A stretch of DNA of 64,000 nucleotides, taken from Candidatus Latescibacterota bacterium. Lineage in GTDB: Bacteria > Latescibacterota > UBA2968. Shown here piece after piece: positions 26,859 to 45,551 of this stretch. The stretch is taken from positions 4,448,001-4,512,000 of the forward strand of contig OZ242320.1 in NCBI GenBank assembly GCA_965208125.1, read 5' to 3'. Below the pieces are notes generated by a model. That model had not been told where the DNA came from, did no database searches, and saw only the letters and a list, made by a program, of their open reading frames with translations. Every line of letters begins with the position of its first letter. Within the stretch, counting starts at the first letter, position 1. Position numbers and translations under genes: made by a program.

Positions 26859-26879
26859 TCGGTGTTCCTTAAAAAAAAT

Positions 26880-27003: not shown

Positions 27004-27008
27004 GCTTT

Positions 27009-27743
27009 TTACAGTGCGTGTCCGCGTAAAACCTCGCGGCATTGTCCCTCACTATTGCCCGTCACATTATAGGCAAAAGTATTCATGCGGCGATCTCGAT
27101 GCGATGTGTTTGGTCCCGATCCGTGAATGGTCAAGGCACTGAAAAACACGCCATCACCCGGTTCCATCGGAACGGGCACCGCGTCTTCTCGCTCGCGATA
27201 GTGCCCCGGCAAAAATACGCCAAAACTCATTTGTGCACGTTCGTGTTCTTGCAGACCCCATTTCTGGCTGCCGGGGATGAACTGAATACATCCATTTTCA
27301 TCATCTGCGCCGTCAATGGCGAGTTGACAATTTACCATCAAGGGCCGATTGTCTTCGCGTTTCCAATACGCGTAATCCTGATGCCAGGGTATTGCCGTGC
27401 CATCGCGCGCGGCTTTCATCAATAGCTTGCTGTGATACAATGAGATATTCGGCCCGATCAGTGTCTCTATAATATCCAACATATCATCGCAGCGCAATGC
27501 GCGATTTAACCCCTCGCAGATCACTTCGCTGTGCATCAACTGTCGGATGCGCCTGGGCAGGTGTTCATCCTCAAATTCTTCCCATGAGATTCCGACTCTG
27601 TCGGGCGTGTTTTCTGCCATTCGCTCGTGCAAGTCCGCAATTTCGCGTTCGATATGCGAAATTTCACAGGATGGAATCAATCCCTTTTTCAACACATATC
27701 CGTTTTTGTCGTAAAATGCCTTTTCTGCATCCGTTAGCCCCAT
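27009..27743 (-). CDS. Phytanoyl-CoA dioxygenase (PhyH) family protein
   Basis: FYDKNGY, PWHQDYAYW (HxD), IPGS, IHGSGPN...RR. ATG at 27743 has an AAGGAG RBS. Confidence 0.92.
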   Translation of the reverse strand: MGLTDAEKAFYDKNGYVLKKGLIPSCEISHIEREIADLHERMAENTPDRVGISWEEFEDEHLPRRIRQLMHSEVICEGLNRALRCDDMLDIIETLIGPNISLYHSKLLMKAARDGTAIPWHQDYAYWKREDNRPLMVNCQLAIDGADDENGCIQFIPGSQKWGLQEHERAQMSFGVFLPGHYREREDAVPVPMEPGDGVFFSALTIHGSGPNTSHRDRRMNTFAYNVTGNSEGQCREVLRGHAL

Positions 27744-27882
27744 TGGACACTCCTTTGTAGTTTCAACCAGCATCTAATTTACAAATTATGACACGCTCTT
27801 GCAAAATCAATTATATTTATAGGGTGGAAATTAGAAATAGGGAACAGAAAGAGAATGATTAACGTCATAATAAACTGATGTG

Positions 27883-27911
27883 TTTTACCCCATGTATGCT
27901 CTGGGGTAAAA
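27883..27911. promoter_or_regulatory. 10-bp perfect inverted repeat upstream of the propeller cluster (possible operator or hairpin)
   Basis: TTTTACCCCA-N9-TGGGGTAAAA. Confidence 0.5.
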
Positions 27912-27975
27912 TTATGTTAGAGAAAAAACCGACCTTTTTTCACCGCCCAATTGGGCACTAAAATAAGGAAAGCCG

Positions 27976-30132
27976 ATGAAAATACGTATTCTTTTTGCTT
28001 TGTTGTTCTGTATCTCTCTTTTGGGAAGTATTTCCGAGGCGTCTGATTGGACGCACTGGCGCGGTCCCATGCAAACTGGTGCTTCGCCGGAGACAGGACT
28101 CGTTTCCTCCTGGTCTCTTGATGGAGAAAATTTGATCTGGCGTCGCGAGTTTATCGGCAGATCTACACCGATTATTGTAAATGGTCGGGTCTATGTTATC
28201 GGGCGAACCGGTGAAGACATAACCGAGCAGGAGCACATCGCGTGTTTTGATGCGGAAACAGGCGATCTCTTATGGGAAAAAAAGTTCAATGTCTGGCATT
28301 CGACCATAACCTTCAATCGTCTGGGATGGGCAAGCCTGGGGGCCGATGGCGAGACCGGTAATATTTACGCCCATCTCGTCAGTGGATTATTGATCTGTTT
28401 TGATACCGATGGCTATGTCCAATGGCAGCGGTCTCTAACCGAAGAATTTAACCGATTCTCCGGTTATGGCGGGCGGTTGCACACGCCTGTTGTAGATGGC
28501 GATCTGGTCATCATCAGCATGGGCAATCGCGGATGGGCCGGCGCACCGCCTTCTCATCGGTATGTTGCCTTTAATAAACATACGGGTGAGACCGCTTGGA
28601 TGGCTCGTCCAGGTGGTGGTGGACAGGTTGATTTAACCGTTTACTCAACGCCTGTTGTCACGACAATTGACGGGCAGCGCGTGTTGGTTGCCGGCAATGG
28701 CAATGGCGGCATTTTTGCCTTTAAAGTCGCAACGGGCGAAAAAGTATGGGGTTTTCCATTCAGTAAGCGCGGCATCAACACCTCGCCTGTCGTGGCTGAC
28801 AATCGCGTTTATGTCGCACACAGCGAAGAAAATGTCGATAATACCTCTCTTGGTCGCGTTGCGTGTTTGGATGCGCGCACGGGCAAAGAAATCTGGCGAC
28901 AAGACGGTATGACCGCGGGCTATGCTTCGCCAGCAGTCCACGCGGGGCGCGTCTATGTTATAGACAATTCGGCCAATGTGCATTGTCTGGACGCCAAAAC
29001 GGGTAAGCAATATTGGGAGCAAAATATCGGCACTGTGGGCAAGGGATCGCCGACCTGGGCCGATGGCAAACTCTATGTTACTGAAGTCAATGGCGGCTTC
29101 CAGATTCTTAAAGCGGGAAATATGAGCGCGGAAGTGCTCGACAAAAAGAAAATCGCAATGCCCGAGGGCGGGCATGCCGAGATCTACGGATCAGTCGCTG
29201 TTGCATATCGCCGCATCTATTTTGCGACGGAAGCCGGGTTGTTTTGCCTGGGCGATAAAAACGCGCGCTTTGAAGTCACATCTTCTCCTCATACAAAGCA
29301 CGAAAGCGCGCCTTCGGGTGCCGAACCCGCATCTATTCTTTCTATTCCAGCTGAGGCGACCATACAACAGGGCGAGGTATTGCCCCTGCGGGCAGAGGCT
29401 TATGATGAGAAGGGATGCTTGATCGGCAATGCCGACGCCGAGTGGTCGTTGAATGGTCTGGATGGAGAAATAAAGAATAATCAGTTTATACCATCCCGGG
29501 CGGGACAGGGCGGCTGGATCACGGTCAAACTCGATGAATTAACCCGCCAGACATGGGTGCGCGTGGTGCCCGATGTGCCCTGGACAGAGGATTTTGAAAA
29601 TATCGAAGTCGGCACAAATCCATTGCACTGGGTGTGGGGAGGCAGGGGTTTTGTGGTGGAGGAAAAAGATGGCAATAAGGTGCTGGCAAAACCTCCGGCT
29701 GCACGCGGCTTAGATCGCTCAAATCTCTATGTGGCGCCGTACAAGCTCAGTGGCTATACTATTCAGGCCGATCTTATGGGCACGCAAAACAAGCGGCGGC
29801 GTCCCGATATGGGGCTTATAGCGCATCGTTATATCCTCGACCTTCAGGGCATTCATCAACGCCTTGAAGTGCGATCGTGGTCGTCGGATTTGCGCATGGC
29901 AAAACGCATTGATTTTAGCTGGGACATGGGGGTGTGGTACACCATGAAAATGAGAGTTGATATCGAAGGTGGTAAAGCCATTGTTCGGGGCAAAGTTTGG
30001 GAAAAAGGCAATCCCGAACCCGATGCGTGGAGTATCGAAGTAGAGGATCCCCTGCCTATAGAAGAGGGCAGCCCCGCGCTTTATGGCTATTCACCTGCCA
30101 CGATTTACTACGATAATGTGAAACTTTGGTAA
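27976..30132 (+). CDS. Secreted PQQ-binding-like beta-propeller protein with extra C-terminal beta-sandwich domain(s)
   Basis: Signal peptide, DWTHWRGP..TG, repeated D.KTG...W blade motifs and a Trp-rich jelly-roll-like C-terminus. Confidence 0.85.
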   Translation: MKIRILFALLFCISLLGSISEASDWTHWRGPMQTGASPETGLVSSWSLDGENLIWRREFIGRSTPIIVNGRVYVIGRTGEDITEQEHIACFDAETGDLLWEKKFNVWHSTITFNRLGWASLGADGETGNIYAHLVSGLLICFDTDGYVQWQRSLTEEFNRFSGYGGRLHTPVVDGDLVIISMGNRGWAGAPPSHRYVAFNKHTGETAWMARPGGGGQVDLTVYSTPVVTTIDGQRVLVAGNGNGGIFAFKVATGEKVWGFPFSKRGINTSPVVADNRVYVAHSEENVDNTSLGRVACLDARTGKEIWRQDGMTAGYASPAVHAGRVYVIDNSANVHCLDAKTGKQYWEQNIGTVGKGSPTWADGKLYVTEVNGGFQILKAGNMSAEVLDKKKIAMPEGGHAEIYGSVAVAYRRIYFATEAGLFCLGDKNARFEVTSSPHTKHESAPSGAEPASILSIPAEATIQQGEVLPLRAEAYDEKGCLIGNADAEWSLNGLDGEIKNNQFIPSRAGQGGWITVKLDELTRQTWVRVVPDVPWTEDFENIEVGTNPLHWVWGGRGFVVEEKDGNKVLAKPPAARGLDRSNLYVAPYKLSGYTIQADLMGTQNKRRRPDMGLIAHRYILDLQGIHQRLEVRSWSSDLRMAKRIDFSWDMGVWYTMKMRVDIEGGKAIVRGKVWEKGNPEPDAWSIEVEDPLPIEEGSPALYGYSPATIYYDNVKLW

Positions 30133-30164
30133 TCTTCATAAACCCTTACAGGTAAAGGAATAAA

Positions 30165-31592
30165 ATGAAATTGAAACGACTTTTTAGCGGATGTGTTATC
30201 GTTGGTTTGATCGTATCGACTGGTATTGCCGAAGAGGTTATGTGGGGATTTACTCCAGATCGCAACCTCGTGTCAGACGCAAAAAATTTGCCGATGAACT
30301 GGAATGTAGAAACGGGTGAAAATATCGCTTGGAAAGCAGATCTCGGTTCGCAGTCCTACGCCGGTCCCATCAGGATTGGTGGCAAAATATTTATGGGGAC
30401 AAATAATCAGATTGAGCGCAATCCCAAAATTACGGGTGACAAGGGCGTAATCATGGCTTTTCAGGAATCCGATGGAAAATTTCTCTGGCAAGCAGCGCAT
30501 CCCAAGCTGCCCGCGGGGCGCGTCAATGACTGGCCACAACAGGGCATTTGCTCCACGCCTTATATTAGCGGAGATCGGATGTATTATATCTCGAATCAAT
30601 GTCGCGTAGTGTGCGCGGATACAGAGGGTTTTTTGGATGGGGAAAATGACGGTCCATATACCGGAGAAGAGGATACGAGCGATATCGGTGTGGATATTAT
30701 CTGGGAATACGACATGATGGAAGAACTGGATGTGTTCCCTCACAATCTGGCGACCTGTTCGCCCGTGGGAGCGGGCAATCTCCTGTTTGTCATCACCGCT
30801 AATGGTGTTGACGAGGGTCACATTGCCATCCCTTCGCCTCTGTCGCCCAGCTTTATTGCGGTCGATCTCAATACGGGGGAACTGGTTTGGGAAAAAGCCT
30901 ATCCCGGTGAAAGTATCTTGCACGGGCAGTGGTCCAATCCCGCTTATGGTATTATCAATGGCAAGCCGCAAGTGATCTGCCCTGGGGGCGATGGCTGGGT
31001 TTATTCAGTAGAACCCGCGACCGGCGACCTGATCTGGAAATTTGACTGCAATCCAAAAGACTCTGTATGGGAGTTGGGCGGGCGCGGTACGCGCAATGCG
31101 ATTATCTCCACTCCAGTTATTTACGATAACAAGGTTTTTATCGGCGTTGGGCAAGACCCGGAGCACGGCGAGGGCATTGGACACCTGTGGGCTATTGACG
31201 CGACGGGTACAGGGGATGTGACGGGAAGCCATGCAGTGTGGCATTTTGGCAATGAAAATTATAACCGTACCATTTCAACGGTGGGCATCAGCGATGGCCT
31301 GCTCTATGCAGCAGATCTGAGTGGCTTTGTCTATTGTCTCGATCTGAAAACCGGTACACAGCACTGGAAATACGATACATTTGCCGCGATATGGGGATCG
31401 CCTTTTGTGGCTGACGGGAAGGTGTACATTGGCGATGAAGATGGCGATGTGGCGATTTTGAAAGCCGGAACACAATTTGAATTGATCAACGAAATCAATA
31501 TGGGTAGCGCCGTATATACCACGCCTATTGCAAAAGATGGCATGCTCTACATTGGCACGCGCAATACGCTGTATGCGATTAAGGGCGAGTAG
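30165..31592 (+). CDS. Secreted PQQ-binding-like beta-propeller protein
   Basis: Signal peptide, MWGFTPDRN, blade motifs (DLNTGELVW, DLKTGTQHW) and acidic/His-rich loop inserts. Confidence 0.85.
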   Translation: MKLKRLFSGCVIVGLIVSTGIAEEVMWGFTPDRNLVSDAKNLPMNWNVETGENIAWKADLGSQSYAGPIRIGGKIFMGTNNQIERNPKITGDKGVIMAFQESDGKFLWQAAHPKLPAGRVNDWPQQGICSTPYISGDRMYYISNQCRVVCADTEGFLDGENDGPYTGEEDTSDIGVDIIWEYDMMEELDVFPHNLATCSPVGAGNLLFVITANGVDEGHIAIPSPLSPSFIAVDLNTGELVWEKAYPGESILHGQWSNPAYGIINGKPQVICPGGDGWVYSVEPATGDLIWKFDCNPKDSVWELGGRGTRNAIISTPVIYDNKVFIGVGQDPEHGEGIGHLWAIDATGTGDVTGSHAVWHFGNENYNRTISTVGISDGLLYAADLSGFVYCLDLKTGTQHWKYDTFAAIWGSPFVADGKVYIGDEDGDVAILKAGTQFELINEINMGSAVYTTPIAKDGMLYIGTRNTLYAIKGE

Positions 31593-31605
31593 AAGGGGTC
31601 ACAAT

Positions 31606-32694
31606 ATGGAAGTTCTGGCAACACCAGCGGTCGATAAGGTCAAAGAAGCGCGCGATATCCTTGACGCCCAGGTGCGAGATATGGTCGCCTGGCATTTTAA
31701 TCCCAATACGGGATGTCCGTTCTGGCTGGAATTTGCGGCGGAACTGGATTTTGATCCGCGGCGGGAGATCGGCGGGTACAGCGATTTGAAATATCTCGGG
31801 CATTTCCAGGACGAATGGCTGCGCGGTGGCCCCGTGCGGCGATGGATCCCGAGGGGTAGCGAGGGGCAGCGGACTTATGTCTTTGAGACGGGTGGCTCAA
31901 CAGGGGTTCCCAAATATCGGATCAGCCAAAACGATTTTCAGATCGACTACGAAATGTTTAGCGAGCACCTTTCTGAAGAAACATTTCCGAAGGGGGCGGA
32001 CTGGTTGATGCTGGGACCAACAGGTCCCCGGCGATTGCGCTTGGCTGTCGAATATCTCTGTCAGATTCGCGGTGGGATTTGCTTTCTCGTGGATCTCGAT
32101 CCCCGATGGGTTAACAAGCTGATCAAGCGCGGCGCACTCCAGGAATTGGAACTCTACAAAGCCCATGTCATCGATCAGGCGCTCACTATTTTGCGCGCGA
32201 ATGATAATGTGAAGTGCATGTTTACGACCCCCAAACTTCTCGAAGAATTGTGCGAAAAAATTTCTCTGCAAAAAGCCGGGATCAGCGGCATTTTTTGCGG
32301 GGGAACAGAGATGAACGCACAGTTTAATAGATTTGCGAGAGAAGAGCTTATCCCTGGCATCGATTTTGTTCCTACCTACGGCAATACCCTGATGGGACTG
32401 GCTTATTCCAAGCCGCTGGAACCCGGAGACAATTACGCGATTACGTATTACCCGCCCGTGCCCCGCGCGTTTATCGAACTGGTGAATCCAAATAATCCCG
32501 ATGAAGAGGTCGGTTACGACGAAGTCGGGCGCGTGATGCTGACGACACTTACGAAAGAATTTTTTATGCCCCGCTTTCTCGAACGCGATGAGGCCGAACG
32601 CGCCAAACCAATTGAAGCCTATCCCTGGGATGGCGTGAGAAATCTGGGTTTGTTCTCCGAGTTGCAGGAATCAGTCGTCGTTGGGGTGTATTAA
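31606..32694 (+). CDS. EhpF/EsmB1-like atypical ANL-superfamily adenylating enzyme
   Basis: WHFNPNTGCPFW, ETGGSTGVPK, PTGP, DLDPRWV, TTP, GGTE, YGNT, ERD and C-terminal GVY match my recollection of Pantoea EhpF motifs along the whole length. Confidence 0.8.
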   Translation: MEVLATPAVDKVKEARDILDAQVRDMVAWHFNPNTGCPFWLEFAAELDFDPRREIGGYSDLKYLGHFQDEWLRGGPVRRWIPRGSEGQRTYVFETGGSTGVPKYRISQNDFQIDYEMFSEHLSEETFPKGADWLMLGPTGPRRLRLAVEYLCQIRGGICFLVDLDPRWVNKLIKRGALQELELYKAHVIDQALTILRANDNVKCMFTTPKLLEELCEKISLQKAGISGIFCGGTEMNAQFNRFAREELIPGIDFVPTYGNTLMGLAYSKPLEPGDNYAITYYPPVPRAFIELVNPNNPDEEVGYDEVGRVMLTTLTKEFFMPRFLERDEAERAKPIEAYPWDGVRNLGLFSELQESVVVGVY

Positions 32695-32753
32695 ATCGAA
32701 CGGATCTTTTATATCCCATACTGTGGTTTCAGTCTTTCAAAGAGGCGAAATAT

Positions 32754-34178
32754 ATGATTCACTTACCTATTTTACGTGCGGGGGAACCGTACACGAGTTT
32801 GAATGTTCAGGAAGTGTCGCATATTCAAACTGGCGAGCCGCTCGTTCAGGTCAGTCAGGCAAATCGGGGGCTGGTTGCGAAAGACTTAAATGCGGCGGTG
32901 GCGAACAAACGGGTGCTCGACAGGCTGAGTGTATCCGAACTCGCAGGTATAACCCGCGAAGCCGCACGCTTATTTGCAAAAGCCGATTTGCCCATTGGCG
33001 ATCATATACAGACGCCCGATGACTATGTCAAACAGGTGTCTGGCACAACGGGTATGCCCGAAGCGCTCTGCCGCGCGAATATGGAAAAAATTCAGCTCGT
33101 GTGTACGGAGATCGAAGCTATTTTAGGGGGTCTCACGCGTGGGTTAGATCTCGCTGTGCTCGATGAAGGCTGGCACAATCAGGATGGTCGCTCTCTCAGC
33201 TATATTTGCCAGGCCGATGCCCTCGGAGCTATATTGCCGAGCAATTCACCGGGTGTACACGCCCTGTGGGTTCCATCCATACCGCTCAAGGTGCCCCTCG
33301 TTCTCAAACCTGGACGCGAAGAGCCATGGACGCCTTTCCGAATTGCACAGGCATTTATCGAAGCGGGGTGCCCGCCAGAAGCGTTTGGGTTTTATCCTAC
33401 GGATCACGGAGGTGCCACTGAAATTTTGCTTCGCTGCGGTCGCTCCATGCTATTTGGGGGCGGGGCGACGGTTGCGCCCTGGCTGAGCGATCCCCGCGTG
33501 GAAATTCACGGGCCTGGACAGAGTAAGGTCATTATTGGCGAAGATGTGATAGACCGCTGGGAAGACTATCTCGACATCGCGGTAGCCTCGATTGCTGCAA
33601 ATGGCGGTCGCTCTTGCATCAATGCGTCAGGCGTGTGGGTTCCCGCGTATGGTCGAGAAATTGCCGAAGCACTCGCAGAGCGATTGGCAAAAATTGTCGG
33701 GAGACCTCTGGATGATCCAGAAGCGCAGATCGCGGCATTTACCAATCCCGCATTCGCCGATCAAATTTCGACAACGATAGACATCCATCTGAAAACCCCA
33801 GGGGCTGAAGATCTGACCGAGAAATTGCGCGGTGATCGGCTGGTCGAGATCGATGGCTTGAAATTCTTAAATCCCACGGTTGTCTGGTGCGATGATTTTG
33901 AACATCCTCTTGCAAATACCGAATATTTGTTCCCATACGCGAGCGTGGTCGAAGTTCCGCAATCGGAAATTCTGGATAAGATCGGACCGAGCCTCGTGGT
34001 GACAGCAATAACAGAGGACCGTGCATTTATCGATAAATTGCTCAATTCTCCCCATGTAGAAAGACTCAATGTGGGGGCGATTCCCACGCCTCAGATTTCA
34101 TGGGATCAACCACACGAGGGCAATTTGTTTGAACATCTTTACCGACAACGCGCGCTGCAATGGGCGAAACAGGCTTAG
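32754..34178 (+). CDS. Aldehyde dehydrogenase-fold acyl reductase (EhpG/EsmB2/LuxC-like)
   Basis: LPSNSPG, LKPG, catalytic Cys in NGGRSCINAS. HGPG replaces the canonical ELGG. EYLFP. Confidence 0.8.
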   Translation: MIHLPILRAGEPYTSLNVQEVSHIQTGEPLVQVSQANRGLVAKDLNAAVANKRVLDRLSVSELAGITREAARLFAKADLPIGDHIQTPDDYVKQVSGTTGMPEALCRANMEKIQLVCTEIEAILGGLTRGLDLAVLDEGWHNQDGRSLSYICQADALGAILPSNSPGVHALWVPSIPLKVPLVLKPGREEPWTPFRIAQAFIEAGCPPEAFGFYPTDHGGATEILLRCGRSMLFGGGATVAPWLSDPRVEIHGPGQSKVIIGEDVIDRWEDYLDIAVASIAANGGRSCINASGVWVPAYGREIAEALAERLAKIVGRPLDDPEAQIAAFTNPAFADQISTTIDIHLKTPGAEDLTEKLRGDRLVEIDGLKFLNPTVVWCDDFEHPLANTEYLFPYASVVEVPQSEILDKIGPSLVVTAITEDRAFIDKLLNSPHVERLNVGAIPTPQISWDQPHEGNLFEHLYRQRALQWAKQA

Positions 34179-34181
34179 GAG

Positions 34182-35297
34182 ATGATAGCATTTGATTTTT
34201 GTCCCACTACGCGCGTGGTGTTTGGGGAGGGCACACTCGCGCAATTGGGGAAATTATCGAAAGAATTGGGCGGAAGCCGCATTCTTTTTGTGACTGATCC
34301 AGGGATTGTAAGTGCCGGGCTTGCAGACCGTGCGATTGCGCCGCTTCAAAGCGCTTCCCTGGATTTTTTTGTGTTTGATGGGGTGGGCGAAAATCCCACG
34401 ACCGCGCATGTAGAGGCCGGTGTCGCGTTTGCAAAGGCACATGGAAATATTGATCTGATTGTCGGGATGGGAGGAGGTAGTGCGATGGATTGCGCCAAGG
34501 GGATCAATTTTATCCTGACAAACGGCGGACAGATGGCCGATTATATGGGTATGGGCCAGGCGGCGAATCCCATGTTGCCCTCGATTGGGGTTCCAACAAC
34601 TGCGGGTACGGGGAGCGAAGCGCAGTCCTACGCGCTTATTTCCGATGCCAAAACGCATGTCAAGATGGCCTGTGGCGATCTTAAAGCGCGATTTCGAAGT
34701 GTTATTCTCGATCCGCCACTGATCGAAAGTGTGCCGAAAAATGTCGCAGCAGCAGCGGGAATAGACGCCATTGCACACGCTATTGAGAGTTATGTTTGCA
34801 CGCGCCGCAATGCCATTTCTATGATGTTCGCGCAAAAGGCGTGGCAATTGCTTTCATCGAGTTTTGAATGCGTGTTGAAGGATGCTTCCGATAGCGATGC
34901 GAGGAGCAAAATGCTTTTGGGTGCGCACTTTGCCGGTGCGGCTATTGAGAATGCCATGTTGGGTGCAGCTCATGCGTGTGCCAATCCATTGACCGCGCAT
35001 TTTGGTATTGTACATGGCATCGCTGTGGCACTTTTGCTGCCCGCTGTCGTCCAATTTAATGGCGAAACCCAAAGTACGCGCTATCGCGGACTCGGAGTTG
35101 ATGTTGATGAACTCGTCGAGAAGGTCGTTTTTTTGAAGGAATGTGCGAATCTGCCTTCTCGATTGCGCGACCTCGGCGTAGCGCGTGACAGCCTCCCAAT
35201 GCTGGCAAAAGATGCAACTGAACAATGGACGGGTACTTTTAATCCGAGACCCGTAGGCGAAAAAGATTTTCTCGCCCTTTACGAATCTGTGTATTGA
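34182..35297 (+). CDS. Iron-containing alcohol dehydrogenase
   Basis: GGGSAMD, PTTAGTGSE, metal ligands DAIAH, AH, VHG. Confidence 0.93.
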   Translation: MIAFDFCPTTRVVFGEGTLAQLGKLSKELGGSRILFVTDPGIVSAGLADRAIAPLQSASLDFFVFDGVGENPTTAHVEAGVAFAKAHGNIDLIVGMGGGSAMDCAKGINFILTNGGQMADYMGMGQAANPMLPSIGVPTTAGTGSEAQSYALISDAKTHVKMACGDLKARFRSVILDPPLIESVPKNVAAAAGIDAIAHAIESYVCTRRNAISMMFAQKAWQLLSSSFECVLKDASDSDARSKMLLGAHFAGAAIENAMLGAAHACANPLTAHFGIVHGIAVALLLPAVVQFNGETQSTRYRGLGVDVDELVEKVVFLKECANLPSRLRDLGVARDSLPMLAKDATEQWTGTFNPRPVGEKDFLALYESVY

Positions 35298-35303
35298 TCT
35301 GCA

Positions 35304-36404
35304 ATGAGAATAATTCTTTTTTTTCTTGGTTTTCAATTATTTTTAATTCCCGTCCAGGCAGAAGAATGGAATCGATTTCGCGGGGATGCACAATCTACAG
35401 GTGTTGCACATAGTAGCTTGCCTGCTGAACTGGATGTGTTGTGGACGGCACAGATCGAAATAGGGATTGAATCCACCGTCGCAATTTGGCAAGATGCGGT
35501 GTATGTGGGCGGGTTGGATGAAAAGCTATACGCTTTTAATTTTGATAGCGGTGCGCTCAAGTGGACGTATGTGGCTACGGGTGAGATCAAGTCGTCGCCA
35601 TTGGTTTTTGAAAAAACCGTGTATTTCGGCGATGGCAATGGCGTTTTTCACGCTGTTGATGCACAAACGGGTAACGCACTTTGGACGTTTCAAACGGATG
35701 GGGAGATTATCTCATCGGCAAATGCAACCGGGGGGCGCGTCCTGTTTGGGTCTTATGATCAGTTCTTATACTGCCTCGCGCCGGGCGATGGAGCTTTGTT
35801 GTGGAAGATAGAAACGGATGGTTATGTTCACGGCATGCCAGCTATCGCGCAAACGCACGCACTCATCGCGGGCTGTGATGGTCTTTTGCGCGTTATCGAT
35901 ATTGCCAGTGGAAAAGAGCAATCGCAAATCGAACTCGGTGCTTATGTGGGCGCCAGCGCAGCCGTTCATCAGACGCGCGCTTATGTGGGGACTTATGAAA
36001 GCCAGATCTTGTGCATTGACTTAACGGCAAAAGAAATTGTCTGGCGATACGAACATCCGCAGCGAAAATTGCCTTATTTTGCATCGCCATCCGTGACCCC
36101 TGAGCGGGTTATTGTTGCAGGGCGCGACAAAATGATTCACGCACTTGATCCCGACACGGGCGATGTTTTGTGGACTTATACGTCCCGATCTCGATTTGAA
36201 GCATCTCCGGTTGTGGTGGGTGATCGCGTTTTTGCAGGGACTACGGGTGGCAGAATCGTGGCATTAAATCTCGAGACCGGTGAACTCGGTTGGGAATTTG
36301 TGACCGGATCGGAATTTGTTGCCTCGCCCAGCGTGGCACGCGAGCGGCTGATTATTGGCACAACAGATGGTACGTTATATTGTTTTGGAAAGGCGGAAGA
36401 ATGA
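35304..36404 (+). CDS. Secreted PQQ-binding-like beta-propeller protein (BamB-like repeats)
   Basis: Signal peptide, EWNRFRGD..STG and eight regular SP...G..D...A.D..TG...W blades. Confidence 0.88.
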   Translation: MRIILFFLGFQLFLIPVQAEEWNRFRGDAQSTGVAHSSLPAELDVLWTAQIEIGIESTVAIWQDAVYVGGLDEKLYAFNFDSGALKWTYVATGEIKSSPLVFEKTVYFGDGNGVFHAVDAQTGNALWTFQTDGEIISSANATGGRVLFGSYDQFLYCLAPGDGALLWKIETDGYVHGMPAIAQTHALIAGCDGLLRVIDIASGKEQSQIELGAYVGASAAVHQTRAYVGTYESQILCIDLTAKEIVWRYEHPQRKLPYFASPSVTPERVIVAGRDKMIHALDPDTGDVLWTYTSRSRFEASPVVVGDRVFAGTTGGRIVALNLETGELGWEFVTGSEFVASPSVARERLIIGTTDGTLYCFGKAEE

Positions 36405-37747
36405 GCGAGCAAATTCAGATTCCAGAGCCAGCGACAACCCGCAAGGTGTGGAGGGAAACAGATGTTGGTAGCGTGTTTGTTTCCAATTATCCGCCTTACT
36501 CTTTCTGGCGCGATGAAAATACGGCGCAGATTGTAGAGATGTTGCATTCATCTGATTCGGGGGATAGAGAAATACCTCTGGGCCTTTACATGCATATTCC
36601 ATTTTGCCGAAAACGGTGCAAGTTCTGTTATTTTCGGGTTTATACAGATCGCAATAGCGCGGAAATTCAGACGTATTTGGATACCCTGGCAAAAGAAGTG
36701 GAAACTTATAGCACGTTGCCGCGTATTGCAGGCCGAAAATTGAACTTTGTTTATTTTGGCGGTGGCACGCCGTCTTATATTAGTGTTAAACACTTAAAGG
36801 TACTGGTTGACCGGATCAAGGCTGTGATGCCGTGGGATGATGCGGAAGAAGTGGCATTTGAGTGCGAGCCGGGTACGCTGTCAAAATCCAAAGTCGAGGC
36901 TATTCGTGAGATTGGCGTCACGCGCTTGAGTCTGGGATTGGAGAATTTAAACGATGATATTTTGCGGGAGAATGGCCGCGCACACGTCAGCAAAGAAATT
37001 TACAGGGTTATGCCGTGGGTCAAGGCGCAGGAATTTGCACAGGTCAATGTAGATTTAATCTCCGGTATGGTTGGGGAGACGTGGGAGACGTGGCGAGATA
37101 CGGTGCAGGGTACTATTGATCTCGACGCGGATAGTGTTACCATTTATCAGATGGAATTGCCGTTTAATACGACGTATTCAAAATCGATACGCGATGGAGG
37201 AGGCTTGCAGGTCGCAGATTGGCCTACTAAGCGCGCATGGCACAATTATGCGATTGAAGAGTTTACCAAAGCGGGTTATGAAACATCGAGTGCTTATACG
37301 CTGGTGAAAAAAGGTCGCCTGAACAAATTCGTCTATCGAGATGCCCTGTGGCGCAGCGCAGATCTCATCGGTACGGGTGTGGCTTCTTTTTCGCATGTGG
37401 GAGGTATGCATTTTCAAAACCAGACGCATTGGGATCCCTATATCGAAACCATTGACAAAGGACAACTTCCGATCAATCGCTCTTTTGTGCCGACAAAAGA
37501 AGAACGGCTGATAAGGGAGATGATTTTGCAACTCAAGCTCGGGCGGATTGAAACAGCTTATTTCCAGGATAAATTTGGTGTCAATATCCTGCACCAATTT
37601 GATGATGCCTATCAGAAGCTCAGGGATTACGAGATGCTGGATTTCGATTCGCAAAGTATCACTCTGAGCCGGGAGGGACTTTTGCGCGTCGATCAGTTGC
37701 TGCCCGAATTTTACCACGAAAAATATCGCAATTCGCGCTATACATGA
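36401..37747 (+). CDS. HemN-like radical SAM enzyme (class C methyltransferase-like)
   Basis: NYPP, YMHIPFCRKRCKFC (CxxxCxxC), GGGTPS, RLSLG, VDLISG. Start overlaps the upstream stop (ATGA). Confidence 0.88.
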   Translation: MSEQIQIPEPATTRKVWRETDVGSVFVSNYPPYSFWRDENTAQIVEMLHSSDSGDREIPLGLYMHIPFCRKRCKFCYFRVYTDRNSAEIQTYLDTLAKEVETYSTLPRIAGRKLNFVYFGGGTPSYISVKHLKVLVDRIKAVMPWDDAEEVAFECEPGTLSKSKVEAIREIGVTRLSLGLENLNDDILRENGRAHVSKEIYRVMPWVKAQEFAQVNVDLISGMVGETWETWRDTVQGTIDLDADSVTIYQMELPFNTTYSKSIRDGGGLQVADWPTKRAWHNYAIEEFTKAGYETSSAYTLVKKGRLNKFVYRDALWRSADLIGTGVASFSHVGGMHFQNQTHWDPYIETIDKGQLPINRSFVPTKEERLIREMILQLKLGRIETAYFQDKFGVNILHQFDDAYQKLRDYEMLDFDSQSITLSREGLLRVDQLLPEFYHEKYRNSRYT

Positions 37748-37771
37748 GTGATCAATAACTATGGAGGATTT

Positions 37772-39013
37772 ATGAAATACAGGTATTATTTGTTAATCGC
37801 TGTTGTGCTTTGCTTTTCTTCCGCACACGCGGATTGGCCCCAATGGTTGGGACCCAACCGAACGGGTATTTCATCTGAAACGGGGTTGTTGACAACCTGG
37901 GCAAAAGATGGACCAGCGGTTGTGTGGGAAAAAGAACTCGGTGAGGGGTTTTCCGGTATCTCGGTCGCAGATGGACGGGTCTATACGATGTTTTCTGCTG
38001 GGGAGGACGAATTTGTCATTTGTTTGAATGAAAAAACGGGCGAGGAAATCTGGCGTTTCAGGACCGGTGCCAAATACTATGAGCGTCAAGGTGGAAATGG
38101 CCCCCGTTCTCAGCCTACTGTGGATGGCGAGCGGGTTTTTGTGCTCAGTGCCGAAGGCTGGTTGTACGCGCTCAATGCAAAAGATGGAAAAAAACTATGG
38201 CTGGTCGATCTCTACGATGGGTTGGGCAGTCGCGTGCCAAAATTCGGTTTTTCGACGTCGCCGCTGGTCGAGGGCGATTTATTGCTTTTAGAAGTGGGCA
38301 CACGGCAGGGGACGTTTATCGCTCTGGATAAGACAAATGGTGCTGTCAAGTGGGCGTCTCAAAACGATATTGTGTCCTATTCATCGCCTATTGCTGTAGA
38401 TATTGCGGATATTCGCCAGGTGGTTTTTGTTTCGGGCGAAGCCGCAGTTGGACTTTCTCCCACAGATGGATCGCTCTACTGGCGATTGCCCTGGTCCACA
38501 TCTTATGATCTGAATATTGCAACACCAATTTTAGTGCCCCCAGATCACATATTTATTTCTTCGGGTTATGACCACGGGGCAGCTCTGTTGCAAATATCCC
38601 GAGAGGGAGATGGTTTGAGCGTTCAAAAGGTGTGGGAAAGCCGCGGCATGAAAAACCATTTTGGAACATCGCTCCTGATCGGCGACTATATCTACGGTTT
38701 TGACAATGCGATTTTGAAATGTATTGAGGCAAAGACTGGCAAAGAACAGTGGAGACGCCGGGGGTATGGCAAGGGATCGCTTATTTATGCCGATGGACGT
38801 TTGATCATTTTGAGCGATAAAGGTAAGCTCGCATTGGCAGACGCATCGCCCACAGAGTTTCGGGAAAAGGCCGGCGCGCAAGTGCTGTCGGGTAAATGCT
38901 GGACACCACCAACACTTGCCAATGGCAAAATTTTTGTGCGCGATATGCACAGAATTGTATGCATGGATGTGTCGGGCACGCAGACGAAACCTGCGGACAC
39001 GGAGAGCGAGTAA
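37772..39013 (+). CDS. Secreted PQQ-binding-like beta-propeller protein
   Basis: Signal peptide (AHA|DW), DWPQWLGPNRTG, GPRSQP, YSSP, WTPPTLANG. GGAGG RBS. Confidence 0.88.
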   Translation: MKYRYYLLIAVVLCFSSAHADWPQWLGPNRTGISSETGLLTTWAKDGPAVVWEKELGEGFSGISVADGRVYTMFSAGEDEFVICLNEKTGEEIWRFRTGAKYYERQGGNGPRSQPTVDGERVFVLSAEGWLYALNAKDGKKLWLVDLYDGLGSRVPKFGFSTSPLVEGDLLLLEVGTRQGTFIALDKTNGAVKWASQNDIVSYSSPIAVDIADIRQVVFVSGEAAVGLSPTDGSLYWRLPWSTSYDLNIATPILVPPDHIFISSGYDHGAALLQISREGDGLSVQKVWESRGMKNHFGTSLLIGDYIYGFDNAILKCIEAKTGKEQWRRRGYGKGSLIYADGRLIILSDKGKLALADASPTEFREKAGAQVLSGKCWTPPTLANGKIFVRDMHRIVCMDVSGTQTKPADTESE

Positions 39014-39062
39014 TAGTCGGAAAAGGCCGGGGGACTGATATCTGACAATTGGAGAAGTCGCA

Positions 39063-41183
39063 ATGCGTTATTTTCGACAGCTTTTGATTTTTACCTGTAT
39101 TCTGGGCCTGACGAGTAATTTTATTTTTGCACAGAATACAGAAGAGGAAGAGAAGAAGGAAGAACTACCCGTTTATGCGGGTGAAGAGATTGTGGTGACG
39201 GAGAGCAAGGAAAAAGTGCCTACCGTGAGCACTATCGCGACGAAGGTTCCCGTCCCAATCCGTTTGACACCTGCGAGTATCGGGGTTGTCAATCACGGGT
39301 TGTTTCAACATCAAAGCGGCGTGGTTTTAGGGGATGCACTGCGAAATGTGAGCGGGGTCAATATTCAGACCGTATTTGGCGTTACGGATTTCTTTGTCAT
39401 TCGCGGTTTCGATTCGCTTTCCAGCGGGCTGGTGCTCACCGATGGCGCATCGGAGCCGGAAGCCACATTTTACAATCTCTACAATCTGGAGCGCGTGGAG
39501 GTGCTCAAGGGTCCGGGCGCATTTTTATACGGCGGCAATCCGCTTTCTGGATCGGTGAATCTGAGTCGCAAACAACCGATTTTTACAAATGCGCTCCAGG
39601 TTGGGGGTTCTTACGGTCCGTACAAAACGGGACGCGGAACAGTAGATGCGAATTGGGCGGATGTCGATCAGGGTATTGCCCTGCGAGTCAATGCACTACG
39701 ACAGGTATCTGATAGCTATCGAGATGATAAAGACAGCGGTTTGTGGGCTATGAATCCCGCAGTGACCTGGCGGCCCAGTGACAGAACCACAGTGACCGCC
39801 AATTTCGAATATGTCACCAGCAGATACAAATCGGATGCGGGCCTGCCCATTATCAATGGGGCGGTCGCAGATGTGCCGCGCACACAATCGTATCAATCGC
39901 CGTTTGATGCGTCAGATCAAGATATTTATCGGGCGCGCGTGGATCTCCACTCCCGCTTGTCGAGACAGGTCACGCTTCGCAACAAGTTCTATTATACAGA
40001 TTTTTCATGGGTGTCTCAGGGCACATTGTTCAGCGGCGTTTTTCCCAATGCTCAGGGGAGTCTGGATATTCTGCGATCACTCGTTCTTTTGGATGACCGT
40101 CAGAAAGTGTTGGGCAATCAGTTTGAGTTTTTATCTACATTCCGCACGGGACACGTAGAACACACGCTGCTTACCGGACTGGAATTGATGCAGTGGAAAG
40201 ACAAATTTACCTTAGATGTGGCTGCTTTGCCCAATATCGACGTGTTCAACCCCGTGGAAACTGCGAGCCAGCCATTTTTTATTATTCCGGGGCAATCGCA
40301 GGGGGCGGATTCAAAAAGTCTCGTTGTCGCGCCCTATGTCGTGAATCGCATTGTCTTTTGTCCATGCTATGAGGCATTTGTAGGTGTGCGATATGACCGC
40401 ATTGATTACGATGATCCCATGACTTCCACGTCTCGCAATTACAACAAACTGAGTCCTATGGCAGGTATGGTGTTTTCGCTTAAGGAGGATCTCTCGTTTT
40501 ACGCCAATGTGGGTAAAGCATTTGCCCCTCCTTCGAGCCTGGTCGCAGGCCCGCGAGAGACCGAAGAGAGTTTGCAGATGGAAGTGGGCGCGAAAAAATA
40601 CCTGTTAGACGACCGCCTGCACGCGAGTTTTGCTGTTTATCATTTGGCAAAAGACAACATCGGAATCCCCGATGCGACAGGTGTCACACAGCAAGATGGC
40701 GATCAACGGTCTCGCGGTGTCGAGCTGGAGATGATGGTGCGCCCCGTGAAAAATTGGCACACATTTTTGTCCTACGCTTTTTCCAATGCCATACTCACGC
40801 GCTTTACCGAGTTTGTCCCCGTGTTCACGCAAACGGGTATTACATACCAGCTTATGGATCGTTCGGGAAATAGGGCAGCTTTTTCGCCGCGCCATATTTT
40901 CAATGTGTGGACAGCGAGAGGATTTGACAACGGGTTGGAATTTGGGATTGGCGTGCGCTATGTCACCAACCAGTTTATTGCCGCAGACAATCAATTTCAA
41001 ATTGGGGATGTGTTGACGCTGGATGCATCCGCGTCTTATACGTACAAGCAGATGAAATTTCGGATTAATGCGAAAAATTTAACCAATCGGGAATACGAAA
41101 CGCAGGGTAGCCTTGGCGCCCCTACCTCAGTTATTCCGGCCAATCCATTTGGCATGTACTGTGCTTTTGAAGTCAATATTTGA
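39063..41183 (+). CDS. TonB-dependent receptor (siderophore receptor-like)
   Basis: Signal peptide, TonB-box-like EIVVT, plug motifs TPASI, IRGF, ERVEVLKGP...YG...G.VN, C-terminal NLTNREY. Confidence 0.92.
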   Translation: MRYFRQLLIFTCILGLTSNFIFAQNTEEEEKKEELPVYAGEEIVVTESKEKVPTVSTIATKVPVPIRLTPASIGVVNHGLFQHQSGVVLGDALRNVSGVNIQTVFGVTDFFVIRGFDSLSSGLVLTDGASEPEATFYNLYNLERVEVLKGPGAFLYGGNPLSGSVNLSRKQPIFTNALQVGGSYGPYKTGRGTVDANWADVDQGIALRVNALRQVSDSYRDDKDSGLWAMNPAVTWRPSDRTTVTANFEYVTSRYKSDAGLPIINGAVADVPRTQSYQSPFDASDQDIYRARVDLHSRLSRQVTLRNKFYYTDFSWVSQGTLFSGVFPNAQGSLDILRSLVLLDDRQKVLGNQFEFLSTFRTGHVEHTLLTGLELMQWKDKFTLDVAALPNIDVFNPVETASQPFFIIPGQSQGADSKSLVVAPYVVNRIVFCPCYEAFVGVRYDRIDYDDPMTSTSRNYNKLSPMAGMVFSLKEDLSFYANVGKAFAPPSSLVAGPRETEESLQMEVGAKKYLLDDRLHASFAVYHLAKDNIGIPDATGVTQQDGDQRSRGVELEMMVRPVKNWHTFLSYAFSNAILTRFTEFVPVFTQTGITYQLMDRSGNRAAFSPRHIFNVWTARGFDNGLEFGIGVRYVTNQFIAADNQFQIGDVLTLDASASYTYKQMKFRINAKNLTNREYETQGSLGAPTSVIPANPFGMYCAFEVNI

Positions 41184-41186
41184 ACT

Positions 41187-42458
41187 ATGCCTGACTTGAC
41201 CACAGATCGAAACGCGCTTTGGCAGCGGCAATTGAAGCGGTTGCGAGGTATGCTGTCTTCAGTGCTGAATGGCAATGATTTTTATCGCAATAAGTTGAAT
41301 CGGGCAGGTATTTATCGACCCGAGGATATTCAGACGCGCAATGATTACAGGCTGTTGCCCTTCACTACTAAAGAGGAATTATCGGCTGACCAGATGGCGT
41401 ATCCACCTTATGGCAGCAACGTGACTTTTCCGCCAGATCACTATATCCGCGTCCATCAAACATCGGGGACTACGGGAGAGCCTTTGAACTGGTTGGATAC
41501 GGTAGAGAGTTGGGATTGGTTTGCGCGTTGCTGGACTTATGTGTATCGCGGGGCGGGCGTGACGGCAAATGACAGATTGTTTTTTGCCTTTTCTTTTGGT
41601 CCTTTTATCGGATTCTGGACCGGGCATGAGAGCGCGCGTTTAATGGGTGCGATGTCCATCTCTGGGGGGTCCATGTCGTCGATTCAGCGTTTGCAAGCGA
41701 TTCAGGATCATCGGGTTACTGTTCTGATCTGTACGCCGACATATGCCCTGCATCTGGCAGAGGTGGCTGAGGCAGAAGGTTTTGATATTGCGGGTGGGGG
41801 TGTTCAGACTACGATTCACGCGGGTGAACCCGGTGCGGGGTTGCCGGCGACCAGACGACGCATTGAGCAGGCCTGGGGAGCGCGTTGTTATGACCACGCC
41901 GGGGCGACTGAGGTGGGTGCGTGGGGATTTGAATGTGCGTTTCGAGATGGCATGCATATCAACGAAGCTGAATTTATTTGCGAAGTGATTGATCCCGATA
42001 CGGGCGAACAAGCGAGAGAGGGGGAGTTGGTGCTCACCAGTTTGGGGCGTGCTGGTATGCCCGTTATCCGCTATCGCACAGGAGATCGCGTAAAGCTGCA
42101 TGCGGGAATATGTGATTGCGGTTCGAGTTTCTCGCGTCTTGAAGGGGGCGTGATTGGACGTATCGACGATGCATTGATTATCCGCGGCGTCAATTTTTAT
42201 CCCAGCGCGATTGAAAATATCGTTCGGGGATTTCCCGAAGTGACCGAGTTTGCGGTGGATATCTACCGACAAAGCGAAATGGATGATATGAAAATTCGCA
42301 TCGAGTTAAATGGTGGAGAGCCGGGGGCAATTTCCGAGACGATTGGCAGAGAGGTGCGACATATTCTGGGCATACGCGCTGGCGTTCAAACCGTGCCGCA
42401 TAATACTTTGCCGAGATTTGAACTGAAAGCGAGACGGTTTACTGATCACCGAGTTTAA
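41187..42458 (+). CDS. Phenylacetate-CoA ligase (PaaK) family protein
   Basis: LPFTTK, TSGTTG, TPTY, GEP, HAGATE, RYRTGD, GRIDD...IRGVN. Confidence 0.88.
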   Translation: MPDLTTDRNALWQRQLKRLRGMLSSVLNGNDFYRNKLNRAGIYRPEDIQTRNDYRLLPFTTKEELSADQMAYPPYGSNVTFPPDHYIRVHQTSGTTGEPLNWLDTVESWDWFARCWTYVYRGAGVTANDRLFFAFSFGPFIGFWTGHESARLMGAMSISGGSMSSIQRLQAIQDHRVTVLICTPTYALHLAEVAEAEGFDIAGGGVQTTIHAGEPGAGLPATRRRIEQAWGARCYDHAGATEVGAWGFECAFRDGMHINEAEFICEVIDPDTGEQAREGELVLTSLGRAGMPVIRYRTGDRVKLHAGICDCGSSFSRLEGGVIGRIDDALIIRGVNFYPSAIENIVRGFPEVTEFAVDIYRQSEMDDMKIRIELNGGEPGAISETIGREVRHILGIRAGVQTVPHNTLPRFELKARRFTDHRV

Positions 42459-42472
42459 TAGAAAGCGTTTCT

Positions 42473-43732: not shown

Positions 43733-43747
43733 ACGGGATTGCTGTAT

Positions 43748-45034: not shown

Positions 45035-45059
45035 TTAAAAACTTAACACGGGAGGGCAA

Positions 45060-45551
45060 ATGCCGACTTCTTCTTCTGGACTTACGTGGTTGATTTTTGC
45101 GTTGATGACTGTGGGCGCGTGGGGTTTGTACGGGATTTTTCTGCACACCGGACAGATCGCTATGGGCGATCCCGAAAATGGACGCTACAAAGCTTTTCTC
45201 TTTGTGGGTATTGCCTATCTTTTGACAGCTGTTATTGGATCCCTCATTGTGCTGGCGATCAACGGATCGGACTGGTCATTTCCGACAAAGGGGCTGACCT
45301 GGTCGCTGCTGGCTGGTATTGTGGGGGCCATCGGTGCATTTGGCGTGCTTCTCGCCTTTGGGGCGAAGGGGACACCGCCCGTGGTTATGTCTATTGTTTT
45401 TGCCGGCGCGCCTATTGTCAATGCCGTCGTATCCCTCATCTTGCATCCGCCAGCAGGTGGGTGGGGTGGGTTGAACTGGCAATTTGTGCTGGGTATTATA
45501 CTGGCTGCGATGGGAGGTTGTCTGGTGACATTATTTAAACCTTCGTCTTGA
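45060..45551 (+). CDS. Five-TM DMT/EamA-like membrane protein
   Basis: About five hydrophobic helices with WGLYG and APIVN motifs. Confidence 0.65.
   Translation: MPTSSSGLTWLIFALMTVGAWGLYGIFLHTGQIAMGDPENGRYKAFLFVGIAYLLTAVIGSLIVLAINGSDWSFPTKGLTWSLLAGIVGAIGAFGVLLAFGAKGTPPVVMSIVFAGAPIVNAVVSLILHPPAGGWGGLNWQFVLGIILAAMGGCLVTLFKPSS

Follow-up and report, generated by a model that had tools for sequence, protein, structure and literature searches.

An EhpF/EhpG-like gene pair as a candidate acid-reducing module in a conserved operon of Latescibacterota

What would relatives of the EhpF/EhpG enzyme pair do in a bacterium that lacks the phenazine core? This question is raised by three consecutive genes (31606-35297) in a stretch of 64,000 nucleotides (the window) from a Candidatus Latescibacterota bacterium (assembly GCA_965208125.1, contig OZ242320.1, positions 4,448,001 to 4,512,000 of the forward strand). 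The genome is a single contig of 5.75 Mb (completeness 96.4%, contamination 5.0%). The genes code for an EhpF-like adenylating enzyme, an EhpG-like protein with an aldehyde dehydrogenase (ALDH) fold and an iron-containing alcohol dehydrogenase (Fe-ADH). A first-pass annotation had described an orphan pair that either scavenges phenazines or, as a two-component carboxylic acid reductase, acts on some other planar heteroaromatic acid. We retain the latter reading, which is based on the homology to EhpF/EhpG, the missing general-base Glu and the missing phenazine core; no observation favors a planar heteroaromatic acid in particular. Judged from sequence comparisons, the three genes probably (roughly 60%) make up the acid-to-aldehyde-to-alcohol reducing part of a conserved operon in two halves and would feed an exported glycoside. 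As part of this explanation, the operon probably has nothing to do with phenazines.

The three enzymes and the phenazine question

The EhpF-like gene (31606..32694, plus strand, 362 aa) codes for a putative adenylating enzyme that consists of the N-terminal ANL domain only. The open reading frame (ORF) extends upstream to a TTG at 31528, and the ATG at 31606 agrees with the alignments. A phmmer search against the PDB (E<=1) returned two distinct sequences, both of which are EhpF (3HGU/3HGV and 3L2K; E 2.9e-43), with an alignment that spans residues 11-354 of the 369-residue chain. EhpF from a Pantoea agglomerans plasmid is 30% identical over 349 columns (E 1e-45). The protein is thus EhpF-like along its whole length, as had been noticed previously. 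The P-loop (ETGGSTGVPK) is aligned to ESGGTTGAPK in EhpF. In 34 EhpF-like orthologs, E94, G96, G97, T99, G100, P102 and K103 are invariant, as are many further positions, and the mean column identity is 74%.

The ALDH-like gene (32754..34178, plus strand, 474 aa; Pfam Aldedh E 1.6e-14) starts 60 bp after the EhpF-like gene; both are single-copy genes in this genome. Its product is 26% identical over 478 columns (residues 4-466, E 1e-37) to that of the ALDH gene which follows EhpF on the Pantoea plasmid (EhpG by position), so that both partners match their counterparts over the full length. The structure model (predicted local distance difference test (pLDDT) 87) has the classical ALDH fold, with template modelling (TM) scores of 0.72-0.74. 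The first-pass annotation had stated that this protein keeps the catalytic Cys, has HGPG in place of ELGG and lacks the general-base Glu, and the orthologs bear this out. IHGPGQSK is aligned to LEAGGKSP of KauB, and the catalytic Cys is retained in GGRSCINAS. Seven residues (H252, G253, G255, C288, N164, K185 and E390) and a C-terminal motif, WDQPHEGNLF, are invariant among 23 orthologs. The general-base position is occupied by His252, never by Glu, in all 23 (H-G-x-G replaces E-L-G-G). We propose that the protein may be a thioester-forming reductase, as these residues suggest.

The Fe-ADH gene (34182..35297, plus strand, 371 aa; Pfam Fe-ADH E 5.8e-48, ADH_Fe_C E 6.2e-36) is present, as annotated, 3 bp past the stop codon of the ALDH-like gene. 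Its motifs are intact (GGGS, D-x-x-x-H and two more His motifs), and we take these to be the cofactor and metal-ligand sites. The order of an Fe-ADH gene and an ALDH gene is common in catabolism. With the ALDH fold and the NAD(P)-binding residues retained, the ALDH-like protein could be an ordinary aldehyde dehydrogenase that follows the Fe-ADH in a catabolic route from alcohol via aldehyde to acid. We regard this as extremely unlikely: the general-base Glu is replaced by His without exception (by Gln in EhpG), the ATP-using adenylating partner is strictly co-inherited, and Pfam and NCBIfam scans of the operon revealed no catabolic genes for the acid product.

Apparent fusions of these genes were considered and rejected. 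Open frames of 833-835 aa in one genus are accidental upstream extensions, with a stop codon between the two genes. Fifteen long database proteins are singletons, and several of them lack the end of the EhpF-like part or a portion of the ALDH-like part. Singletons such as P0122-P0131, which join the EhpF-like and ALDH-like proteins (once with the Fe-ADH) or an upstream beta-propeller and the EhpF-like protein, resemble frameshift read-throughs.

Phenazine biosynthesis genes had been reported as missing from the window, and none occurs among its 47 ORFs of at least 150 aa, which were covered by the Pfam scan. This extends to the whole genome. There is no match to PhzF (PF02567) in a search that was positive in 10 of 14 control genomes, and none to PhzA/B (PF03284) in a search that finds the Pantoea plasmid gene with E 1.9e-75. 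This lack of a phenazine core rules out that the pair serves ordinary phenazine tailoring. The genome also has no match to a GriH-type (DHQS-II) synthase of 3-amino-4-hydroxybenzoate (3,4-AHBA), a search that was positive in 3 of 14 control genomes. This excludes grixazone-type tailoring, and 3,4-AHBA was rejected as the substrate.

Conservation of the pair and co-inheritance with a glycosyltransferase

Across Latescibacterota, Poribacteria, Acidobacteriota and Planctomycetota, the identities of the EhpF-like protein are 57-78%. In a word-indexed search with this protein, at least 8000 candidates reached E<=0.001. Among them, the 120 with the best scores are 72-90% identical, with sources that include KSB1, Calditrichia, Poribacteria and Acidobacteria. 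With one genome per species, a relative is encoded in at least 587 of 599 matched stretches.

The gene neighborhood was analyzed for those 45 of 80 retrieved loci that have at least 9 kb on both sides. Orthologs were required to have at least 40% identity over at least half of the length, and the count covers genes within 10 kb of the EhpF-like gene. An ortholog of the ALDH-like gene was found in 38 of 45 loci, of the Fe-ADH in 27, of the propeller directly upstream of the pair in 25, of a radical S-adenosylmethionine (SAM) enzyme in 18 and of a GT4 glycosyltransferase in 14. Five of the acidobacterial or planctomycete genomes with no ALDH-like gene within 10 kb were checked, and in all five the gene was found elsewhere or just past the flank (one of them partial). 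The cluster occurs in two forms. The long form, in which more of the operon genes accompany the pair, is found in loci that carry the labels Latescibacterota, Poribacteria, Gemmatimonadota, Acidobacteriota (Mor1, Sulfidibacter) and Planctomycetota. The short form (EhpF-like, ALDH-like, GT4, ATP-binding cassette (ABC) ATPase and FtsX) is found in most loci labelled Blastocatellia or Bryobacteraceae.

For the phylum of the window, 153 genomes with at least 80% completeness were surveyed. The EhpF-like gene is present in 95 of them, always as a single copy. It was found in 20 of 20 genomes in the genus of the window, and in none of the 28 genomes from ten other families. Both genes of the pair occur in 93 genomes, the EhpF-like gene alone in 2, the ALDH-like gene alone in none, and neither in 58. 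The two discordant genomes are fragmented assemblies in which a short contig ends at the EhpF-like gene. A GT4 ortholog (E<=1e-90) is present in exactly the same 95 genomes. Because relatives are not independent, no statistic was attached to these co-occurrence counts. GT4 is also kept where it is 0.3-3 Mb away from the pair, as in several closed genomes (GT4 at 1.15 Mb and the pair at 4.27 Mb in G118; 0.43 and 1.98 Mb in G093). In these two genomes, a TonB-dependent receptor, a PaaK-like ligase, a halogenase, GT4, an EamA-like protein and a thioesterase form one block, which in G118 also has a propeller pair upstream and the ABC ATPase and FtsX genes downstream. The EamA-like protein is 74-75% identical beside GT4 in two other families of the phylum. 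That both halves are kept after unlinking argues that the EhpF/EhpG-like half and the GT4 half serve one function.

A second phylum, to which locus L041 (labelled Blastocatellia) belongs, was sampled evenly. The EhpF-like gene is present in 25 of 101 genomes with at least 90% completeness (57-76% identity; one of the 25 carriers is an unpublished genome). The pairwise identities of the EhpF-like and ALDH-like proteins are correlated (r 0.90, 820 pairs from 41 loci), which reflects shared history only. In a tree, all 70 members of the clade are separated by a very long branch from EhpF of Pantoea and from an "arylcarboxylate reductase" of Streptomyces. The method behind this tree was a quick one, and the rows of the outgroup are very long. 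Within the clade, phylum labels cluster (13 changes compared with 35.8 in shuffles).

These results bear on the proposal that foreign phenazines are scavenged or tailored. The pair is homologous to EhpF/EhpG, and the TonB-dependent receptor of the operon could import a foreign compound. Nevertheless, such a role is highly improbable. The branch to the Pantoea enzyme is very long, the phenazine core is missing, and the gene set, which is 57-78% identical in at least four phyla, is inherited together with a glycosyltransferase. With its own ligase, halogenase, glycosyltransferase and exporter, the operon reads as biosynthesis rather than salvage.

The operon and its proposed pathway

Sixteen plus-strand genes are encoded at 27976-49999, with a spacing of 3-60 bp or small overlaps, and are predicted to be a tightly packed operon in which the EhpF-like, ALDH-like and Fe-ADH genes are genes 3, 4 and 5. 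Contrary to what had been assumed, the pair is therefore not an orphan; the same conserved operon provides a ligase, a halogenase, a radical SAM enzyme, a thioesterase, GT4, ABC export and a TonB-dependent receptor. Besides its enzymes, receptor and transport genes, it codes for four exported propellers. The 200 bp upstream of 27976 are enriched in promoter-like sites (6 observed, 1.5 expected).

Gene 10 (41187..42458, plus strand, 423 aa) codes for a PaaK-like aryl/acyl-coenzyme A (CoA) ligase with a small C-terminal domain (Pfam AMP-binding_C_2). It matches phenylacetate-CoA ligases in the PDB (4R1L and 2Y27, E 1e-52 to 1e-56) and the NCBIfam model PaaK (E 1.4e-74, below the cut-off). Gene 11 (42473..43732, plus strand, 419 aa) codes for a flavin-dependent halogenase. 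Its PDB matches are 8ZOP (E 1.7e-67), CndH (3E1T), PltA and CmlS, with E values up to 1e-38. It carries GGGPAGS and WFWYIPL, which presumably correspond to the GxGxxG and WxWxIP motifs of flavin-dependent halogenases, and a Lys aligned with residue 76 of CndH, which we take to be the active-site Lys of this enzyme class. A protein maturase of the QhpG/LodB type was rejected for this gene because halogenases match far better and WxWxIP is present. Gene 12 (43739..45034, plus strand, 431 aa) is the GT4 glycosyltransferase (Pfam Glycos_transf_1 E 2.6e-29). Gene 13 (45060..45551, plus strand, 163 aa) codes for a small polytopic membrane protein which has no Pfam family at E<=0.001. An Atlas feature search matched it to a "putative EamA domain-containing protein" (score 0.97, a lead only), and it is probably a half-size EamA/DMT transporter. 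Gene 14 (45548..46003, plus strand, 151 aa; Pfam 4HBT E 1.4e-10) codes for a 4HBT-fold thioesterase with matches to the YbgC/FadM family below the cut-offs.

The last two genes code for an ABC machine. Gene 15 (46062..46715, plus strand) codes for an ATPase of the LolD/MacB type (Pfam ABC_tran; NCBIfam LolD E 3.4e-72). Its ORF is open from 45891, and the start was set to 46062, where homology begins (the LolD match starts at residue 60). Gene 16 (46700..49999, plus strand, 1099 aa) codes for a permease in which two FtsX domains are combined with a periplasmic domain of the MacB type (Pfam FtsX in two stretches, MacB_PCD). It has weak matches to ADOP and LolC/E, and its orthologs come after GT4 and the ABC gene in acidobacterial loci. 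Upstream of the ligase, gene 9 (39063..41183, plus strand, 706 aa; Pfam Plug and TonB_dep_Rec_b-barrel) codes for the TonB-dependent receptor, which belongs to the siderophore-receptor subfamily TIGR01783 (248.5 bits, above the cut-off of 223.5). Gene 7 (36401..37747, plus strand, 448 aa; Pfam Radical_SAM) codes for a HemN-like radical SAM enzyme, and its ATG overlaps the stop codon of the preceding propeller gene (ATGA). It matches the NCBIfam models hemN and ChuW/HutW (E about 1e-55, both below the cut-offs), and in the PDB HemN (1OLT) and the radical SAM methyltransferase NocN.

The proposed pathway starts from what was observed, namely homologous sequences, retained catalytic residues, the arrangement as an operon and a GT4 that is co-inherited with the pair. 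For each chemical step, the order of the steps and the fate of the product, we infer the following. The EhpF-like enzyme, an ANL enzyme devoid of the C-terminal domain, would adenylate a carboxylic acid at the expense of ATP. The acyl group would then move to Cys288 of the EhpG-like partner, from which NAD(P)H would release it as an aldehyde, with the lack of the general-base Glu blocking the hydrolytic (oxidizing) direction. The Fe-ADH would convert the aldehyde to an alcohol. In this lineage, the PaaK-like ligase, the halogenase, the thioesterase and the HemN-like radical SAM enzyme may provide the acid, or tailor it, in the form of a CoA thioester. GT4 would glycosylate the hydroxyl group created by the Fe-ADH, and the EamA-like protein might carry the product over the inner membrane. 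FtsX-type ABC machines act on the periplasmic side, and the LolD/double-FtsX machine would handle the product in the periplasm. The exported propellers and the TonB-dependent receptor would meet it in the envelope. The acid is most likely aromatic or aryl-alkyl, which is favored because of the characterized relatives, the PaaK-like ligase and the halogenase.

With the exporter and GT4 in view, a fatty-acid version of this pathway is possible, although rather unlikely. The pair would act on a fatty or hydroxy-fatty acid as LuxE/LuxC do, the Fe-ADH would produce a fatty alcohol, GT4 would make an alkyl glycoside, and the FtsX-type ABC machine would place it in the outer envelope. Heterocyst glycolipids, which are exported by DevBCA, provide an analogy, and the ABC ATPase resembles LolD, MacB and DevA. 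The pair and GT4 are strictly co-inherited, and the minimal acidobacterial form is devoid of aromatic-acid enzymes. According to the accessible parts of a preprint on sponge microbiomes, the related "Halo_AMP" clusters match the glycolipid exporter cassette of the bartoloside cluster (bioRxiv 10.64898/2026.08.03.742642). The only characterized relatives, EhpF and GriC, however, act on aryl acids, and NCBI labels the plasmid homologs "arylcarboxylate reductase". Neither LuxE nor LuxC was matched in Pfam, the Pfam and NCBIfam scans found no acyl carrier or fatty-acid genes in the operon, and the PaaK-like ligase and flavin halogenase indicate aromatic substrates.

The presence of a complete CoA ligase and a thioesterase in the operon also allows a different division of labor. 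The ALDH-like protein could be an acyl-CoA reductase that is fed by the PaaK-like ligase, and the EhpF-like protein could catalyze a separate ligation of the BagE type, forming an ester or amide. LuxC-type reductases can use acyl-CoA directly, as stated in the portion of a preprint available to us (bioRxiv 10.1101/2025.08.11.669332). We consider this division of labor quite improbable. The pair stays together in acidobacterial loci that have no PaaK-like gene nearby, and in the split genomes the PaaK-like gene accompanies GT4, not the pair. In addition, the presence pattern is shared by the EhpF-like and ALDH-like genes (93 of 95 genomes), and their identities track each other, although this correlation reflects shared history only.

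Several points weigh against the proposed pathway. The EhpF-like protein scores 23 bits against the Pfam family AMP-binding, for which the cut-off is 29.9, and matches no NCBIfam model. The Pfam scan found no carrier protein in the operon. For the Fe-ADH, the nearest named families (ErcA, lactaldehyde reductase, choline and threonine dehydrogenases, all below the cut-offs) act on small aliphatic substrates, a poor match to a bulky aromatic aldehyde. In the short acidobacterial form, no Fe-ADH, PaaK-like ligase or halogenase is nearby, and with the halogenase of this operon as query an ortholog was found in only 3 of 5 short-form genomes. The Fe-ADH families and the short form thus speak against an aromatic acid, and because of the latter, halogenated aromatic chemistry may be a lineage-specific tailoring rather than the common denominator. 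The label of the EamA-like protein comes from the feature search and is a lead. Finally, 30 of 30 bins of 27900-46100 are covered by contigs from RNA libraries (four libraries, from three studies of sponge and coral), which may reflect carried-over DNA.

These RNA-library contigs are mostly 90-95% identical to the window and come from relatives rather than this strain. One of them is 24 kb long and has an insert of 5.3 kb between the EhpF-like and ALDH-like genes; in record 24 of run X18, 5316 extra letters were found at 32693/32731 of the window. Close relatives also carry inserts exactly between these two genes, where the window has 60 bp. One (L001:11112-12308, minus strand) is an antisense gene for an AAA_14/DUF4143 ATPase; another (L003:11184-16238) also holds two DUF3857/transglutaminase-like genes.

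Gene 1 (27976..30132, plus strand, 718 aa; Pfam PQQ_2 E 1.6e-36) codes for an exported propeller of the pyrroloquinoline quinone (PQQ)-like type. It has a signal-peptide-like N-terminus, and an ortholog is upstream of the EhpF-like gene in 23 of the 45 fully flanked loci. Gene 6 (35304..36404, plus strand, 366 aa; Pfam Beta-prop_ACSF4, 199.8 bits, cut-off 133) codes for another exported propeller with a signal-peptide-like N-terminus and has orthologs in 23 of 45 loci, and gene 8 (37748..39013, plus strand, 421 aa; Pfam PQQ_2 E 2.1e-35) codes for one with a hydrophobic N-terminus. The propeller directly upstream of the pair, encoded by gene 2 (30165..31592, plus strand, 475 aa; Pfam PQQ_2), is exported and 8-bladed. 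It is 59-91% identical in 16 orthologs across phyla and has many invariant polar residues, with motifs such as GRVNDWPQQG, GVDEGH, GQDPEHGEG and GDEDGD in low-confidence loops of the model (pLDDT 78). The model is nearest to BamB, followed by PQQ alcohol dehydrogenases. The fold search returned generic 8-bladed propellers only (BamB, PQQ dehydrogenases, tetrathionate hydrolase and YxaL), an Atlas search PQQ-repeat clusters only, and no known family matches. This conservation looks enzyme-like or ligand-site-like.

Two further PQQ-like propellers are encoded beside the operon (50006-51541, minus strand, and 51559-53001, plus strand; both Pfam PQQ_2), and 6 of about 13 PQQ_2 genes of the genome are located at 27976-53001. 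A search of the genome for PqqC gave no match, with the control equally silent. It is tempting to speculate that the operon is a self-contained system which makes, exports and takes back a glycosylated, here halogenated, alcohol or aldehyde as the ligand or cofactor of its own exported 8-bladed propellers. This would represent a PQQ-independent, "quinoprotein-like" periplasmic system in Latescibacterota, Poribacteria, Acidobacteriota and Planctomycetota. Taken together, these two proposals are doubtful; they are left open because of the clustering of PQQ_2 genes, the conserved propeller and the TonB-dependent receptor beside the exporter.

A PhyH-type Fe/2-oxoglutarate dioxygenase (27009..27773, minus strand; Pfam PhyH E 3.3e-37) is encoded divergently from the operon. 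Its ortholog is nearby in 6 of 45 loci, all from close relatives, so that it is a lineage-specific neighbor. Together with a DUF6785/DUF6784 membrane protein it occupies 24870-27773 (minus strand), and the two genes are kept in the closest relatives only (5 of 45 loci for the membrane protein). On the other side, 53014-63592 looks like a neighborhood for the utilization of sulfated polysaccharides, with a TRAP-type transporter, a heparinase II/III-like protein, an enolase-superfamily enzyme, a sulfatase, a 5'-nucleotidase-like phosphoesterase and L-rhamnose isomerase. Elsewhere in the window, a UvrD-type helicase of 1000 aa (17158-20160, plus strand) has an RNase_T-like exonuclease domain inserted between its N-terminal and C-terminal helicase domains. 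An AAA_21/AAA_15 ATPase with an AbiEii-like family name (1576-2883, minus strand) adjoins DXP synthase, and Pfam gave no match for the two small ORFs that lie downstream.

To our knowledge, carboxylic acid reductases made of two proteins have been described in only a handful of pathways, for antibiotics and pigments. In the present case, such a reductase would be a slowly evolving, single-copy orthologous group present in at least 587 species-level genomes. Its breadth, its single copy and its co-inheritance with GT4 imply that a widespread exported metabolite should exist in these mostly uncultured, often sponge- or coral-associated bacteria. Cultured carriers (Sulfidibacter corallicola M133, locus L063, and Acidobacteria bacterium Mor1, locus L039) make the question testable. 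As a predicted compact catalyst that converts acids to aldehydes with ATP and NAD(P)H, the pair could also serve biocatalysis.

Comparison with known systems

Single-polypeptide carboxylic acid reductases (Nocardia CAR and Lys2) catalyze the same net reaction, which depends on ATP and NAD(P)H. They join adenylation, carrier and reductase domains, whereas the proposed reductase consists of two proteins, has an ALDH-fold reductase and is devoid of a carrier or a reductase domain of the short-chain dehydrogenase type; no PP-binding or NAD_binding_4 match was obtained for the operon proteins in Pfam.

The resemblance to LuxE/LuxC of bacterial bioluminescence is in outline only. Pfam scans give only AMP-binding and Aldedh for the two proteins. 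LuxE and LuxC, which we take to be the names of the Pfam families, are not matched by the pair at E<=0.001, nor by the EhpF-like protein at E<=5. In the window, the Pfam scan revealed no luciferase, LuxD-like or other lux-like genes. In the lux system, as described in the accessible part of a preprint, an ATP-dependent acyl-activating protein passes the acyl group to a reductase of the ALDH superfamily (bioRxiv 10.1101/2025.08.11.669332).

At the level of gene clusters, the operon resembles the "Halo_AMP" orphan clusters from sponge microbiomes, which are defined by Trp_halogenase and AMP-binding Pfam hits (Loureiro et al., bioRxiv 10.64898/2026.08.03.742642). In the portions of this preprint available to us, these clusters are described for Acidobacteriota, Latescibacterota and Poribacteria; they often contain PQQ-like, glycosyltransferase, thioesterase, radical SAM and TonB genes, along with BagE-like ligases of the PaaK type. 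The window has both hits in adjacent genes (PF04820, E 2.6e-26, and PF00501/PF14535). The available main text names no product and no aldehyde dehydrogenase, EhpF/EhpG or reductase module. Literature searches found no paper on arylcarboxylate reductase or on 8ZOP, none on this EhpF-like clade among the EhpF titles listed, and none that combines a halogenase, a phenylacetate-CoA ligase, a radical SAM enzyme, a TonB-dependent protein and an aldehyde dehydrogenase.

GriC/GriD from Streptomyces griseus (grixazone biosynthesis; substrate 3,4-AHBA) belongs to the same mechanism class, a likeness by description and not by sequence. In the accessible part of PMC10179220, it is cited as a demonstrated carboxylic acid reductase (Suzuki et al. 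2007), in which the AMP-binding protein adenylates the acid and its partner reduces it to the aldehyde. The pathway differs, as the genome analyzed here has no GriH-type 3,4-AHBA synthase. Homologs from Streptomyces plasmids, labelled "arylcarboxylate reductase", match the EhpF-like protein at 32-37% identity.

The closest counterpart is EhpF/EhpG from the D-alanylgriseoluteic acid operon of Pantoea agglomerans. In both systems, the first gene codes for an ANL protein (about 360 aa) that has no C-terminal domain, and the gene directly after it for an ALDH-fold protein (about 474 aa) that keeps the Cys and lacks the general-base Glu (Q-G-P-G in EhpG, H-G-P-G here). The structure of EhpF was reportedly described by Bera et al. 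in 2010. The two systems differ in their sequences (30% and 26% identity, with a very long branch between the clades) and completely in their neighboring genes. The phz core is found in Pantoea only, where EhpF comes after PhzA/B, isochorismatase, PhzE-like, PhzF and PhzG-like genes on the plasmid. The pair from Latescibacterota is thus a new, very conserved branch of a known kind of enzyme.

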